64,000 bases of DNA, taken from an uncultured Gammaproteobacteria bacterium (GTDB lineage: Bacteria; Patescibacteriota; Patescibacteriia; CAYZDG01). The stretch lies in assembly GCA_964536515.1 (NCBI GenBank), contig CAZHXI010000003.1, positions 9,112 to 73,111 of the forward strand, given 5' to 3'. Shown here in pieces: positions 15,255 to 61,283 of the stretch (position 1 is the first letter of the stretch; each line of letters begins with the position of its first letter). The translations under genes and the position numbers were made by a program. The notes under the pieces are model-generated. The model was not told where the DNA came from. It saw only the letters and a program-made list of their open reading frames with translations, and searched no databases.

Positions 15255-16328
15255 CTACCGTATCACGCCCCCGCCGAGAACCTCGCGCCCCCGGTACAGC
15301 ACGGCATGCTGCCCGGGGGTTACCGCGCGTTCGGGCTGGTCCAGCGTTACCACCCAATGTCCCCTGACGCTAGCTACCGTCCCCCGCCTGGGCTTCTGCT
15401 GGTGGTAGCGGACCTCCACCGTGCAGCGCAGCGGCTCGGCTGGCTCTACGCCGCTGACCCAGTGCATATCCTCCAGCTGAAAGCGCCGCGAGAAGAGACG
15501 TGGATCGTGAGGGTCATTCGTAACGCGCACCACGTTCCTGCGCACGTCGGTAGCTACAACGTACCAGGGGCCGTCCGGCAGCCCCAGTCCATCCCGCTGG
15601 CCGACCGTGTAGAGCCACGCGCCCCGGTGCTTGCCCAGCTCACGTCCGCGGAGGTCTACGATCTTCCCCTGCCGTTCACGAATGTGGTGGCTGAGGAAGT
15701 CGAAGAGCTTAACCTCTCCCACGAAGCAGATGCCCTGGCTATCTGGCCTGGTCGCATTGGGCAAACGGACCTTCTTGGCCAAAGCTCTAACCTGGGCCTT
15801 CGTCATTCCACCGAGCGGGAACAGCGACCGCGCCAAAGTCTGCTGGCTGCTGCGGTACAGGAAGTAGCTCTGGTCTTTGCTCGGATCCGTCCCGCGCAGT
15901 AGACGGTACCTTCGGTGTCCCCGTGTTCCCGTATTCAGAACTCCGGCGTAGTGCCCGGTAGCCACGTAGTCGGCACCAACCTGCACGGCTCGGCGGAGGA
16001 ATGTGCCGAACTTTATCTGCTGGTTGCAGCGCACGTCGGGGTTCGGCGTACGGCCCCGCCGGTACTCGGCAAAGAACTCACGCAGCACCTGCCGGCGGTA
16101 CTCTGCGGCAAAGTTCCAGGTGTACAGGGGAACCTTAAGGTGCTCCGCGGCAGCCTTAGCTGCGTCATAGTCTGACTCCCAGCGGCAGTCGGAGCCCGGC
16201 AGCTGCGCCGGATCTACGTTCACCATGAACACGCCGAACACGTCGTAGCCCTGCCGCTTGAGCAGGTACGCTGCGACTGCCGAATCCACGCCGCCCGATA
16301 GGCCGACGGCCACCTTCCCCCTGCCCAT
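15255..16328 (-). CDS. mnmA: tRNA-specific 2-thiouridylase MnmA (start MGRGKVAVGLSGGVDS at 16328; track ORF to 16388)
   Basis: SGGVDS PP-loop, catalytic-Cys region and MnmA C-terminal barrel. The ATG lies 2 nt after the upstream gene's TAG. Confidence 0.9.
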   Translation of the reverse strand: MGRGKVAVGLSGGVDSAVAAYLLKRQGYDVFGVFMVNVDPAQLPGSDCRWESDYDAAKAAAEHLKVPLYTWNFAAEYRRQVLREFFAEYRRGRTPNPDVRCNQQIKFGTFLRRAVQVGADYVATGHYAGVLNTGTRGHRRYRLLRGTDPSKDQSYFLYRSSQQTLARSLFPLGGMTKAQVRALAKKVRLPNATRPDSQGICFVGEVKLFDFLSHHIRERQGKIVDLRGRELGKHRGAWLYTVGQRDGLGLPDGPWYVVATDVRRNVVRVTNDPHDPRLFSRRFQLEDMHWVSGVEPAEPLRCTVEVRYHQQKPRRGTVASVRGHWVVTLDQPERAVTPGQHAVLYRGREVLGGGVIR

Positions 16329-27697: not shown

Positions 27698-28819
27698 TTA
27701 CTCTACCAGACGGTAGCGTCCGCCGGGAAGCTTGGCGAACCGCTTGCGGTTCATCAGCGCCAGGGCAACGGTGGAAGACTTCACCACCCGCTGCTTCAGC
27801 ACGCGCTCCACAATCTCGTCCTTGGTAAGGGGCTCGGCTGCATCGCGGAGCACCCGCTCGATTACGTCGGCGACCACGCCGGGCTGGTAGCCCCACTCGC
27901 GCAGTGCGTAGGTGCCGCGGCCGACCAGCACGTACTTGGAGTCGAGGATCAGCTCGTTGTGCACCGTGGCCGGGTAGGCGGTCTTGTGGTCGAAGCCCGT
28001 CTCGTTGATAGCCTTGGCGATGTCGGTGAAGTGCATGGGCTTGCCGTACTTCTTGAGCACCAGGTAGATCTTGTCGCTCATGCGGCGCGGGTTGACCGTC
28101 TTCCAGTCCGCCAGGCCCCACTCGCCGTACGGGTTCACCCGCAGCTTGTTGCTGGCGCGCATGTACGACTCGACCGCGTCATCGGTGAGGGAGTCGCTGT
28201 TCTCGCTGTAGTGCGGGTGGGCCTTAACGGCAGCCAGGACGTCATCCATAGGCTTCGGCTCGCCCAGCTTGTCGATGACGGTGTGGAGCGACAGCAGCGT
28301 CTTCTCGATGAACTCCCACGGGGTGGCTGCGAGGCGCCAGGAGGGGTGCAGCTCGTCGCGATACTTCAGCCGCTCGACCTCGTCCACCAGCTTATCGATG
28401 AGCATGAGGGCGGCTGCGCGCTGCTCGCGGACCGAAGACTGCTGGCCGAGCACGCGGTCCAGGCCCATGTCCTCGGGAATGAGGCCGCCGTGCTGCTCGA
28501 GCACGCGGCGAGACACGGCGCCCAGCGGGGCGACCAGGCCCTCGCGCTCGTCAGCCTGGCGCAGCTTGCGCAGAGCCGAAGCCTCGATCTGGCGGACACG
28601 CTCACGGGTAATCTTGTACTGCTGGCCAATGGCCTCCAGCGTCTGCGGCTCCGGGTTCTTGCCCAAGCCGAAGCGTAGGTGAATCACCTCACGCTCGCGT
28701 GCGCTCAGCCCCTGGCCAAGCTTGATGATGATCTCGTACGGATTCAGGTCCTTAGCTAGCGACTCGTGCTGGCTAGAGAGCACCCGATCGAGGATGGAAT
28801 TTTCCTTGCTGTCGGCCAT
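27698..28819 (-). CDS. Sigma-70 region-4-like domain fused to three HARE-HTH-like repeats (about 373 aa from ATG 28819; track ORF TTG at 28867)
   Basis: N-terminal [51 protein letters not shown] matches the sigma70 region 4 consensus. Three repeats starting (K/E)P(M/L) and ending ...[11 protein letters not shown] / ...[10 protein letters not shown] / ...GGRYRLVE resemble the HARE-HTH of RNAP delta subunit. Confidence 0.7.
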
Positions 28820-28927
28820 ATATTTATTGCTATTGCGCACAGTACCACAGTATGTTTTAAGCGTCAAGCAAGCCTGTGCACAGGCAGCCCCGGCGGTAGC
28901 CGGGGCTAGCAGAACCGCTGCAGTCCC

Positions 28928-51095: not shown

Positions 51096-51165
51096 TACAG
51101 AACACCAGAACACCTGTACACGGGAACGAAGGTGTTCGAGTGTTCCGGTGTTCCGACTGCTGCTA
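51096..51165. promoter_or_regulatory. Palindromic array of GAACACC/GGTGTTC heptads around TGTACA (copy A)
   Basis: GAACACCAGAACACC-TGTACA-...GGTGTTCGAGTGTTCCGGTGTTCC. Shares about 30 bp with copy B at 55.6 kb. Confidence 0.5.
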
Positions 51166-55589: not shown

Positions 55590-55660
55590 ACGACAACACT
55601 AGAACACCGCAGCGCCCGTGTTCCGGTGTACAGGTGTTCCGGTGTTCTGTATCCTTTACC
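55590..55660. promoter_or_regulatory. GTGTTC/GAACAC heptad array with TGTACA core (copy B), upstream of the 55662 gene
   Basis: ...GAACACCGCAGCGCCCGTGTTCCGG-TGTACA-GGTGTTCCGGTGTTCTGTAT. Confidence 0.5.
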
Positions 55661-60059: not shown

Positions 60060-61283
60060 ATGGAAAAACTGCAGCGACGGCTGCGTCTGTTCATAGTTCT
60101 CGCCCTGCTCACCGGAGCGGCGGCGGCTCTGTTCGTTGGCACCGCCAGCGCCCAGACGAGCACCGCCGAGACCGTAACCATTGGGGATATGGGGCTAACG
60201 GCTACCCCGCCGGCGGGTGGCTTCGCCCGGTGGTGGGACAGCTTCACGGACGGCGTAAGGCTGCAGTTTACCTTCAATGACCAGAGGAAAGCCGAGCTGC
60301 AGCTGCAGCGGGCCGCCAAGCTCCTCGCCCGACTAGAGCAGGCCGGGGGCGACGCCCAGGCAGAGCAGCTGCTGGCCAAGTACCGGGCCGCGGTGAACAA
60401 GATCGAAGCGGAAGCCGAGCTGAGCGACACGTTCCTGGGTAGGCTCCTGGCCCAGCAGAGCTTCATTACCCAAATCGAGGGCTCGGGCCGCTTCAGCTTG
60501 GGCGACCAGCTAGCCGTTACGCGCAACCAGAACTGGGAGAAGCTGAACGCAACCTTCGGCGATGCCGGAGCGCTTAGCCAGCGCCTAGCCAACCTACCTA
60601 CCGCCTCGCCCGAGGCAATTGCCAGGCGTGCGGCCATGCTGGAGGAGTGGCGGCAGCGCCTCTCGCCCGAGCAGCAGGCTAAGGCCGAGGCTGCCATAGG
60701 TGCACTGGTAGAGAAGCTCCGCAGCCTATCCCCCGCCCAGGCAGCGGCCATTGCCGAACGTCTGCACGCCTTCACCGCCAGCCAAGAAGCCCAGGCGTAC
60801 ATCGGGGCGCTCCTGGAGAAGGTGCAGCCTAGCCTGGAGGGGCTGGCTAAGCAGCTGGCGCAGCCCCGGCAGCCCAACCAAGACCCGACGCCGGCCAATG
60901 CCGCTGCCGGCATCCTGGGCAACGTTGCGGTGCCCCCCATGTCAGCCGGGGAGATTGCCGCCCGTCGCGCCGAGCTTGCCGAGGCGACCACCAAGGATGA
61001 GCTGCTGGCCCTACGCCAGCGCTGGTACGGCAACCCGGTGCTCTACCGGCAGCTATCGCAGTACCAGCGCACGCTGCTGGACCAGCTCAACGCCAAGCTG
61101 GTCAAAGCCCTGGGCAGGGGCTCGCAGCCGGTAACCCCCGCTGCTCCGACGGATCCGGACGCCGGCGTAACTCCCCTCCCCACCCAGCAGCTGACCCCCG
61201 AGCAGCAGGCAATGGGCCAGGCCTTCATCCAGATGCAGGGCATAGACTCCAGCGACCTACCGCCGCCCACGGTCTCTTACTAG
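60060..61283 (+). CDS. Secreted hypothetical alpha-helical protein (407 aa)
   Basis: Signal peptide; Ala/Gln/Leu-rich helical repeats. An extended -10-like TGGTATACT lies about 40 nt upstream. Confidence 0.65.
   Translation: MEKLQRRLRLFIVLALLTGAAAALFVGTASAQTSTAETVTIGDMGLTATPPAGGFARWWDSFTDGVRLQFTFNDQRKAELQLQRAAKLLARLEQAGGDAQAEQLLAKYRAAVNKIEAEAELSDTFLGRLLAQQSFITQIEGSGRFSLGDQLAVTRNQNWEKLNATFGDAGALSQRLANLPTASPEAIARRAAMLEEWRQRLSPEQQAKAEAAIGALVEKLRSLSPAQAAAIAERLHAFTASQEAQAYIGALLEKVQPSLEGLAKQLAQPRQPNQDPTPANAAAGILGNVAVPPMSAGEIAARRAELAEATTKDELLALRQRWYGNPVLYRQLSQYQRTLLDQLNAKLVKALGRGSQPVTPAAPTDPDAGVTPLPTQQLTPEQQAMGQAFIQMQGIDSSDLPPPTVSY

Follow-up and report, generated by a model that had tools for sequence, protein, structure and literature searches.

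A Patescibacterial protein family joining a stand-alone sigma region 4 to four winged-helix units, and its possible role at promoters

The stretch of DNA considered here, 64 kb of contig CAZHXI010000003.1 from an uncultured Patescibacterium (the window), carries on its minus strand a gene for a protein in which a stand-alone sigma region 4 is followed by four winged-helix units. We use FAM as a working name for this protein and for its family. Its sequences mark FAM as a real family that is strongly constrained by purifying selection, and descent from a primary sigma factor, by way of its C-terminal domain, best explains its origin. We tentatively read FAM as a sigma-4-derived DNA-binding factor that would recognise −35-type hexamers and act on transcription initiation.

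The Patescibacteria (Candidate Phyla Radiation, CPR) account for a large part of bacterial diversity; their genomes are tiny, with few recognisable regulators, and they have become genetically tractable only recently. FAM would be an unrecognised part of their basic gene-expression or DNA-handling machinery. It also opens a first route to the function of the orphan VirD4-like ATPases, which are present in most Patescibacteria far from type IV secretion genes, are unexplained in the literature, and here prove to be co-transcribed with FAM.

Results

Region 4 of FAM keeps the −35 reading head of sigma

The FAM gene is complete, running from an ATG at 28819 to a stop codon that ends at 27698, and the public assembly annotation places the start at the same codon as the open reading frame (ORF) call. 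Its parts, in window coordinates, are the following (AF2, AlphaFold2).

27698..28819, minus strand: complete FAM coding sequence, 373 aa plus stop (ORF list and sequence, Pfam, AF2 model)
28748..28798, minus strand: N-terminal helix, about aa 8–24, with the family-conserved motif SILD+V (alignment and AF2 model)
28541..28741, minus strand: sigma-70 region 4 (4.1 and 4.2), aa 27–93
28583..28609, minus strand: core of the recognition helix, T71-R-E-R-V-R-Q-I-E79, equivalent to E. coli sigma70 T583–E591, the −35 reading head (family alignment)
28325..28537, minus strand: winged-helix unit A, aa 95–165, acidic (−2.6) (model topology and hhalign A–B; no Pfam match alone)
28094..28324, minus strand: winged-helix unit B, aa 166–242, acidic (−3.1), with C-terminal GEWGLADW (model and hhalign B–D and B–C)
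27887..28093, minus strand: winged-helix unit C, aa 243–311, a canonical HARE-HTH like the N-terminal domain (NTD) of the delta subunit, basic (+4.4)
27701..27886, minus strand: winged-helix unit D, aa 312–373, a marginal HARE-HTH, basic (+4.4) (Pfam below cutoff, hhalign to B and C, model)

The match of Pfam Sigma70_r4 (PF04545) to aa 37–88 of FAM reaches 59.8 bits (E=1.8e-16), where the cutoff is 24.1; the FAM family profile finds solved sigma region-4 chains at E ~1e-19. In the AF2 model, region 4 superposes on that of Thermus aquaticus sigmaA at 1.0 Å over 58 residues. The original prediction, made from the letters of the window alone, had described a stand-alone ORF with a sigma70 region 4 and with sigma regions 1–3 lacking both here and in the neighbouring gene, and this description is borne out. 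Pfam finds neither Sigma70_r2 nor Sigma70_r3 in FAM, the NCBIfam models of RpoD, RpoS and extracytoplasmic function (ECF) sigma factors meet it only by their last ~60 positions and far below their cutoffs, and tblastn detects no sigma region 2 or 3 elsewhere in the 64-kb window.

Residue conservation was read from an alignment of 263 FAM members with 67 RpoD region-4 segments. The FAM equivalents of E. coli R554, R562, T572, L573, E574, R584, E585, R586, R588 and Q589, which we take to be the residues of sigma70 that contact the −35 element, are 87–100% conserved, and the motif TRER[VI]RQ, identical to that of RpoD, is 99–100% conserved. This stands in a domain whose overall conservation is only 0.53. 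The hydrophobic core of the domain (V45, I46, F50, L52, L83 and L86) is 82–98% hydrophobic across the family. K593, R596, the HPSRS turn and the last helix (L..FL) are near-invariant in RpoD and variable in FAM. FAM thus shares with region 4 of a group-1 sigma (sigma70/SigA) the fold, the TRER[VI]RQIE helix and all of the −35-contacting residues, but differs in lacking regions 1.1–3.2, in not conserving the C-terminal elements just named, and in a helix that continues into the four winged-helix domains. The last helix of sigma (S5) carries F610 and L611, and the title of a reference quoted in PMC6755090 names it as a target of both MotA and the beta-flap tip. Our reading of the alignment is that selection has kept the DNA-reading head of FAM, and not obviously its flap-docking tail.

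We also considered whether the N-terminal SILD+V helix could be a homologue of the ‘LGDFIED’ element of sigma region 3.2. This is not supported, as hhalign against 61 RpoD linker segments returned nothing and the spacing does not fit.

Four winged-helix units of probable common descent follow region 4

The AF2 model, built with 34 homologues, has a predicted local distance difference test score (pLDDT) of 90.3 and a predicted TM-score (pTM) of 0.78. It shows an N-terminal helix (aa 9–24), then region 4 (aa 27–93), then four winged-helix units of H-b-H-H-b-b topology with limits at aa 97–163 (A), 168–236 (B), 247–306 (C) and 316–371 (D). Pfam HARE-HTH (PF05066) matches the full-length protein with 50.7 bits and E=2.4e-13. 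Scanned singly, unit C passes at 36.2 bits, unit D with 22.2 bits stays below the cutoff of 25.9, and units A and B give no match. Profile-profile comparison by hhalign (P of 1e-6 for B–D, 3e-5 for B–C, 1.5e-4 for C–D and 2e-4 for A–B) supports, at the level of sequence, a common descent of the four units. FAM had initially been described as carrying three HARE-HTH repeats; HARE-type winged helices are indeed present, and the three repeats are units B, C and D, but the units number four, A having been missed, and C is the only one that passes Pfam by itself. The proposed HMM check thus came out significant for Sigma70_r4 and, with respect to HARE-HTH, for the whole protein and unit C.

Across 261 aligned sequences (260 members and the query) the mean net charge is +3.7 for region 4, −2.6 for A, −3.1 for B and +4.4 for both C and D, and unit C is the most conserved segment of the protein. 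By structure comparison of the model, the array resembles tandem winged-helix arrays such as that of SelB-C, and the structural matches include the globular domains of histones H1/H5, forkhead, MecI, delta and the triple winged helix of Dcc1. A sequence search of the PDB with the C-terminal profile of FAM gave no significant match. The RNA polymerase (RNAP) delta model TIGR04567 meets unit C at aa 246–309, not at the N-terminus of FAM, with 37.8 bits against a cutoff of 42, and hhalign of unit C to the delta NTD gives P=0.0046.

FAM is a Patescibacterial family

A word-indexed search with FAM returned more than 5,800 matches, and the best 120 are all ~370 aa long with both Pfam domains. An exhaustive HMMER scan of 1.84 billion representatives yielded 581 clusters (at 50% identity) with E<=1e-30, nearly all of 340–400 aa. 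The named sources in the search are Parcubacteria, Kerfeldbacteria, Komeilibacteria and Patescibacteria; species-representative genomes add Saccharibacteria, Peregrinibacteria, Paceibacterota and Kaiserbacteria, so that all named sources are Patescibacteria. No member was found in viral contigs. The window itself has a GC content of ~63%, which is unusually high for a Patescibacterium, and the closest relatives of FAM and of the two proteins encoded downstream of it (DUF8128 and an ATPase, see below) come from NCBI and Logan contigs.

Members of the family are named ‘sigma factor-like helix-turn-helix DNA-binding protein’ by NCBI and ‘DNA-directed RNA polymerase delta subunit’ by JGI. The statement that no family with this layout has been described therefore has to be qualified: thousands of homologues stand in the databases and one counterpart stands in a supplementary table of a transposon insertion sequencing (Tn-seq) study, while a literature search, which did not cover the original HARE-HTH paper, found no functional description of the layout or of its role in Patescibacteria. 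The layout is visible, and its function is undescribed in the literature that we found.

Two members are fused to other proteins. One (P0246) is joined to SecF, probably by read-through from its usual upstream neighbour. The other (P0241, 800 aa, on five contigs) consists of a complete sigma factor with regions 2, 3 and 4, a second and diverged region 4 (TRQRIQQIK), and the array of four winged helices. Its gene comes right after parB, and neither DUF8128 nor the ATPase stands beside it. At the sequence level this fusion links the FAM family to sigma.

L081 10001-12403 (also L082-L084): sigma-FAM fusion gene (P0241)

The apparent counterpart in S. epibionticum is essential

A genome-wide Tn-seq study of S. 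epibionticum lists a 349-aa protein, SEML1_0294 (misnamed ‘RpoS’ by Prokka), with PF04545 at 27–72 and PF05066 at 225–283 (Wang et al., 2023, PMC10633639, Tables S1 and S2). Its DPAM domains are given as ‘tri-helical, winged, winged, winged’ (PMC10633639). DPAM assigns the third winged helix to e7f75L1, and chain L of 7f75 is the delta subunit of B. subtilis. SEML1_0294 is flagged as a core family enriched in Patescibacteria, after Meheust et al., and is absent from the main-text discussion of Wang et al. (PMC10633639). We infer that it is the counterpart of FAM, since the Pfam layout, the length and the downstream DUF8128/TrwB-type neighbour are alike; a difference is that in S. epibionticum DUF8128 and ATPase are fused into one 921-aa protein. 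For comparison, the Saccharibacteria loci in our set (L004, L007–L009 and L012) encode proteins with 36–38% identity to the FAM of the window.

SEML1_0294 was scored essential at T0, T1 and T2, its insertions falling from 24 in the input DNA to 1, 1 and 2 (PMC10633639). The directly downstream gene, SEML1_0293, which encodes the fused protein (TrwB domain at 402–719), is non-essential and tolerates many insertions (PMC10633639). A canonical RpoD with regions 1.2, 2, 3 and 4 (SEML1_0063) is also present and essential (PMC10633639). These data suggest that the FAM family is essential, judged from the one species that has been tested genetically. Because a canonical RpoD with its own region 4 exists beside it, FAM is no replacement for a missing region 4.

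FAM heads a conserved operon with a consensus promoter

A 108-nt intergenic region, preceded by secF, lies upstream of the FAM gene. It contains a promoter-like sequence read directly from the letters:

28839..28867, minus strand: candidate FAM promoter, TTGACG (28867–28862), 17 nt, TACTGT (28844–28839)

An in-frame TTG at 28867 is part of this TTGACG, and in the alignment the homologues begin at the position of the ATG and not at the TTG. The site is not listed by the built-in promoter scan, its −10 hexamer being too weak. The TG of an extended −10, a motif common among the aligned promoters of the family, is missing from it.

For the wider context we collected 91 FAM loci, 13 from genomes and 78 from metagenomes. 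A genome scan with the full-length alignment drew mostly rpoD, through the shared TRER[VI]RQI (13 of the 80 loci were FAM members), after which the metagenome contigs were scanned with the C-terminal alignment. The pattern TTGACN-N15-19-TAnnnT occurs within 150 nt upstream of the FAM gene in 53 of 67 loci (79%), and upstream of 32 of the 141 other genes that are preceded by a gap of at least 80 nt. It was found at 2 of 79 loci for DUF8128 and at 0 of 63 for the ATPase. Because the consensus promoter lies upstream of FAM and not of DUF8128 or the ATPase, the FAM gene is the head, that is the promoter-proximal gene, of a conserved operon.

Additional TTGAC/GTCAA sites upstream of the FAM −35 hexamer were considered as autoregulatory operators and rejected, as they are not specific to the gene: 19 of 64 FAM promoters have them, and so do 13 of the 54 other promoters and 16% of the intergenic windows taken as background. 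The window holds 8 copies of TTGACA against 13.9 expected by chance, nearly all of them just upstream of genes (e.g., at 24271, 37779, 37826, 42123, 42184 and 42679). This rarity and placement fit a canonical use of the −35 element with strong counter-selection outside promoters in a Patescibacterium of 63% GC. The copy at 24271–24276 overlaps the stop codon of the ATPase gene.

The partner genes resemble a split VirB4/T4CP-like ATPase

In the window, FAM is flanked by secF upstream and by a DUF8128 membrane protein downstream, followed by an ATPase:

26046..27635, minus strand: partner gene 1, DUF8128 membrane protein, 529 aa, similar to the N-terminal part of VirB4 (PF26449 in the public annotation; AF2)
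24273..26042, minus strand: partner gene 2, soluble TrwB/VirD4/DUF87-type ATPase, 589 aa, with a C-terminal treble-clef zinc finger (Pfam and NCBIfam)

This arrangement is conserved. In 71 of the 77 loci with enough sequence the next ORF after FAM is DUF8128, and in two more DUF8128 stands behind a tiny ORF; its median gap to FAM is 54 nt. All three genes (FAM, DUF8128 and the TrwB/DUF87-type ATPase) stand in this order in 47 of 57 loci, and secF lies upstream in 43 of 59. Exceptions are a Peregrinibacteria locus (L005), where FAM and its partner genes are not adjacent, and two loci (L119 and L120) where DUF8128 is missing from its usual place.

DUF8128 has no match in our local copy of Pfam. 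In a Foldseek comparison its AF2 model (pLDDT 75) aligns with TrwK/VirB4, over the N-terminal part of the latter (E=2e-5). The ATPase matches TrwB_AAD_bind, DUF87 and the TraG P-loop, with weak matches to TraM-recognition domains, and is without an N-terminal membrane segment. The two genes are fused in L005, as they are in SEML1_0293. Given the VirB4-like model and these fusions, DUF8128 and the TrwB-like ATPase look like a split VirB4/T4CP-like ATPase (T4CP, type IV coupling protein). A survey of Patescibacteria counted 5,713 VirD4-like genes in 2,918 genomes, only 148 of which are near virB4 (PMC12102498). The split DUF8128/ATPase pair may explain these ‘orphan’ VirD4-like genes across the Patescibacteria. 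Among the annotated genes of the window there is no virB4, relaxase or mating-pair-formation gene, and the FAM loci were not given a relaxase-directed scan.

The C-terminus of DUF8128 (26046–26075, minus strand) carries a nearly invariant PPxNLP (P523, L526 and P527 in alignment A3) after ~110 residues of predicted disorder, which looks like a short docking peptide for a partner. The genes that come next after the ATPase encode a CAP-domain protein and two large secreted proteins, paralogues of each other, which contain Big_9, cadherin-like and CHB_HEX_C domains; these are probably surface adhesins.

20511-22187, 22309-24177 and 19081-20391, minus strand: genes for the secreted and CAP-domain proteins

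Discussion

We find that a sigma region 4 with an intact DNA-reading head is combined, throughout a Patescibacterial family, with an array of four winged helices. It is plausible from the sequence that FAM is an RNAP-associated or promoter DNA-binding factor, and we tentatively favor the more specific reading that it acts on transcription initiation by recognising −35-type hexamers. The region-4 module would bind TTGACA-type hexamers, the same element that region 4 of sigmaA reads, and the basic units C and D would add contacts to DNA or to RNAP. FAM would therefore be placed at promoters, where it could act as a general initiation factor that competes or cooperates with sigmaA. A further possible function is autoregulation through the consensus TTGAC promoter, and with it control of the ATPase operon. 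The essential role of FAM would be separable from the downstream ATPase.

An extended and distinctly less probable version of this proposal is that FAM is an additional, essential, lineage-specific initiation subunit of RNAP, a trans-acting ‘second region 4’ that would recognise TTGACA-type DNA and attach to RNAP by its delta-like winged helix. If this were true, promoter recognition in Patescibacteria would differ in composition from the textbook core-plus-sigma holoenzyme, and an initiation subunit might be physically coupled, through its operon partners, to a membrane VirB4/T4CP-like ATPase. The hypothesis is directly testable in S. epibionticum by means of SEML1_0294.

Several points weigh against a role for FAM in initiation. 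Binding to DNA or to RNAP is a prediction from sequence and structure model, and canonical docking on the beta-flap is doubtful in view of the sequences, because the family conserves neither the HPSRS turn nor the C-terminal helix. In sequence, unit C is similar to delta at a level close to the threshold or below it. The sigma-FAM fusion is confined to one lineage, and within 8–10 kb on either side none of the 91 loci has a sigma-like ORF other than FAM. The orthology of SEML1_0294 is drawn from published table entries (domains, length and neighbour), not from an alignment. Finally, the synteny with a T4CP-like ATPase is very strong, and it could place the primary role of FAM in membrane DNA handling rather than in transcription.

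The synteny points to an alternative in which FAM is an adaptor that binds specific DNA and either passes it to the membrane-bound VirB4/T4CP-like translocase formed by DUF8128 and the ATPase or tethers it there. TraM and TrwA are accessory DNA-binding proteins that work with the coupling proteins TraD and TrwB, and FAM resembles them in that the gene for a DNA-binding protein stands beside one for a TrwB/TraD-type ATPase. The tight gene order, the absence of separate promoters for the two partner genes, the TrwB DNA-binding domain and weak TraM-recognition matches of the ATPase, and the likeness of DUF8128 to the N-terminal part of VirB4 all speak for such an adaptor. We nevertheless consider it unlikely, as in S. 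epibionticum many insertions are tolerated by the fused DUF8128-ATPase gene but not by the essential FAM gene, one lineage joins the FAM domain set to sigma with no ATPase nearby, and the genes are separated in L005 and DUF8128 is missing from its usual place in L119 and L120. FAM also differs from TraM and TrwA in fold and in being part of a chromosomal, phylum-wide system, with no relaxase or virB4 nearby as far as the annotated window genes and the survey of VirD4-like genes go (PMC12102498; the FAM loci themselves were not scanned specifically for relaxases). In another alternative, which follows an idea of the original prediction, FAM would be a sigma mimic or anti-sigma whose region 4 occupies the beta-flap tip, competes with region 4 of sigmaA and remodels or inhibits the holoenzyme. 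The intact fold and hydrophobic core of region 4 would allow this, and a precedent is found in AsiA, a mimic of sigma region 4 that takes over the flap-tip contacts (PMC6755090). AsiA of T4 is comparable in function, as a second ‘region 4’ at a promoter, but it has no sequence or fold relation to FAM, and it is encoded by a phage while FAM was not found in viral contigs. A pure protein-protein decoy needs no invariant −35 DNA-contact residues, the gene is essential and not conditional, and the elements of RpoD that are lost in FAM are the HPSRS turn and the last helix; because the DNA contacts are invariant and these elements are not, the sequences would make a pure flap decoy or anti-sigma role less favoured, and we think it rather improbable.

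The basic charge of three modules, the confident multi-winged-helix model with histone H1/H5 and the Dcc1 triple winged helix among its best matches, the essentiality of the gene and the position of the sigma-fused paralogue directly downstream of parB would also suit a chromosome-organising or nucleoid-associated protein, independent of RNAP, whose five HTH-type modules bridge or coat DNA and are possibly linked to segregation. We give this little credence, since the invariant base-specific −35 contacts of sigma point to a defined hexamer target rather than to general coating, and since the adjacency to parB is seen in one lineage only. Orthology with the delta subunit (RpoE) of Firmicutes, as the JGI label implies for many members, is very improbable. 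What FAM shares with delta is unit C, a HARE-HTH winged helix of the kind found in the N-terminal domain of that subunit. The TIGR04567 score is below its cutoff, and FAM has a region 4 and three more winged helices in addition, two of its four winged helices being basic. The C-terminal region of delta has a net charge of −47 (PMC7749165), whereas FAM ends in the folded, basic unit D and has no polyanionic C-terminal region. With the defining acidic tail missing, we reject delta orthology. That FAM is a truncated or frameshifted rpoD pseudogene fragment had been named at the outset as an outcome that would undo the prediction. Only the similarity in region 4 speaks for it, and we attach practically no probability to it: the gene is preceded by an intergenic region and secF, tblastn finds no coding potential for regions 2 or 3 in the window, and ~581 clusters of relatives share the layout and the length (uniformly ~340–400 aa) under strong conservation, which refutes a frameshift.

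Split sigma systems offer a further comparison. In SigO-RsoA of B. subtilis and gp55/gp33 of phage T4, sigma functions reside on separate polypeptides, and FAM shares with them a region-4-like function without region 2 in the same chain. It differs from them in that there is no region-2 partner near FAM, and in that S. epibionticum has, besides the FAM counterpart, an essential and complete RpoD that carries a region 4 itself.

Other observations in the window

ARAGORN reports a 96-nt tRNA-Gly at 61056-61151 (minus strand), inside an ORF. Rfam finds no tRNA or other RNA family over the whole 64-kb window, and ARAGORN has probably reported a false positive here; failing that, the tRNA would be an unusual one.

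Arrays of GTGTTC/GAACAC hexamers with 8-nt spacing in dyad arrangement occur at 51100-51153 and 55594-55647, and more weakly at 15915-15936. One lies in a divergent intergenic region at ~51.1 kb and another just after dnaE, and the pattern has 11 matches with up to two mismatches against 1 expected by chance. To judge from the sequence, the arrays look like an operator. As targets of the FAM winged helices they were rejected, as they are not family-wide and the pattern is absent from 165 of 165 other loci. The arrays also create spurious ‘VYRCSGVLY’ ORF starts.

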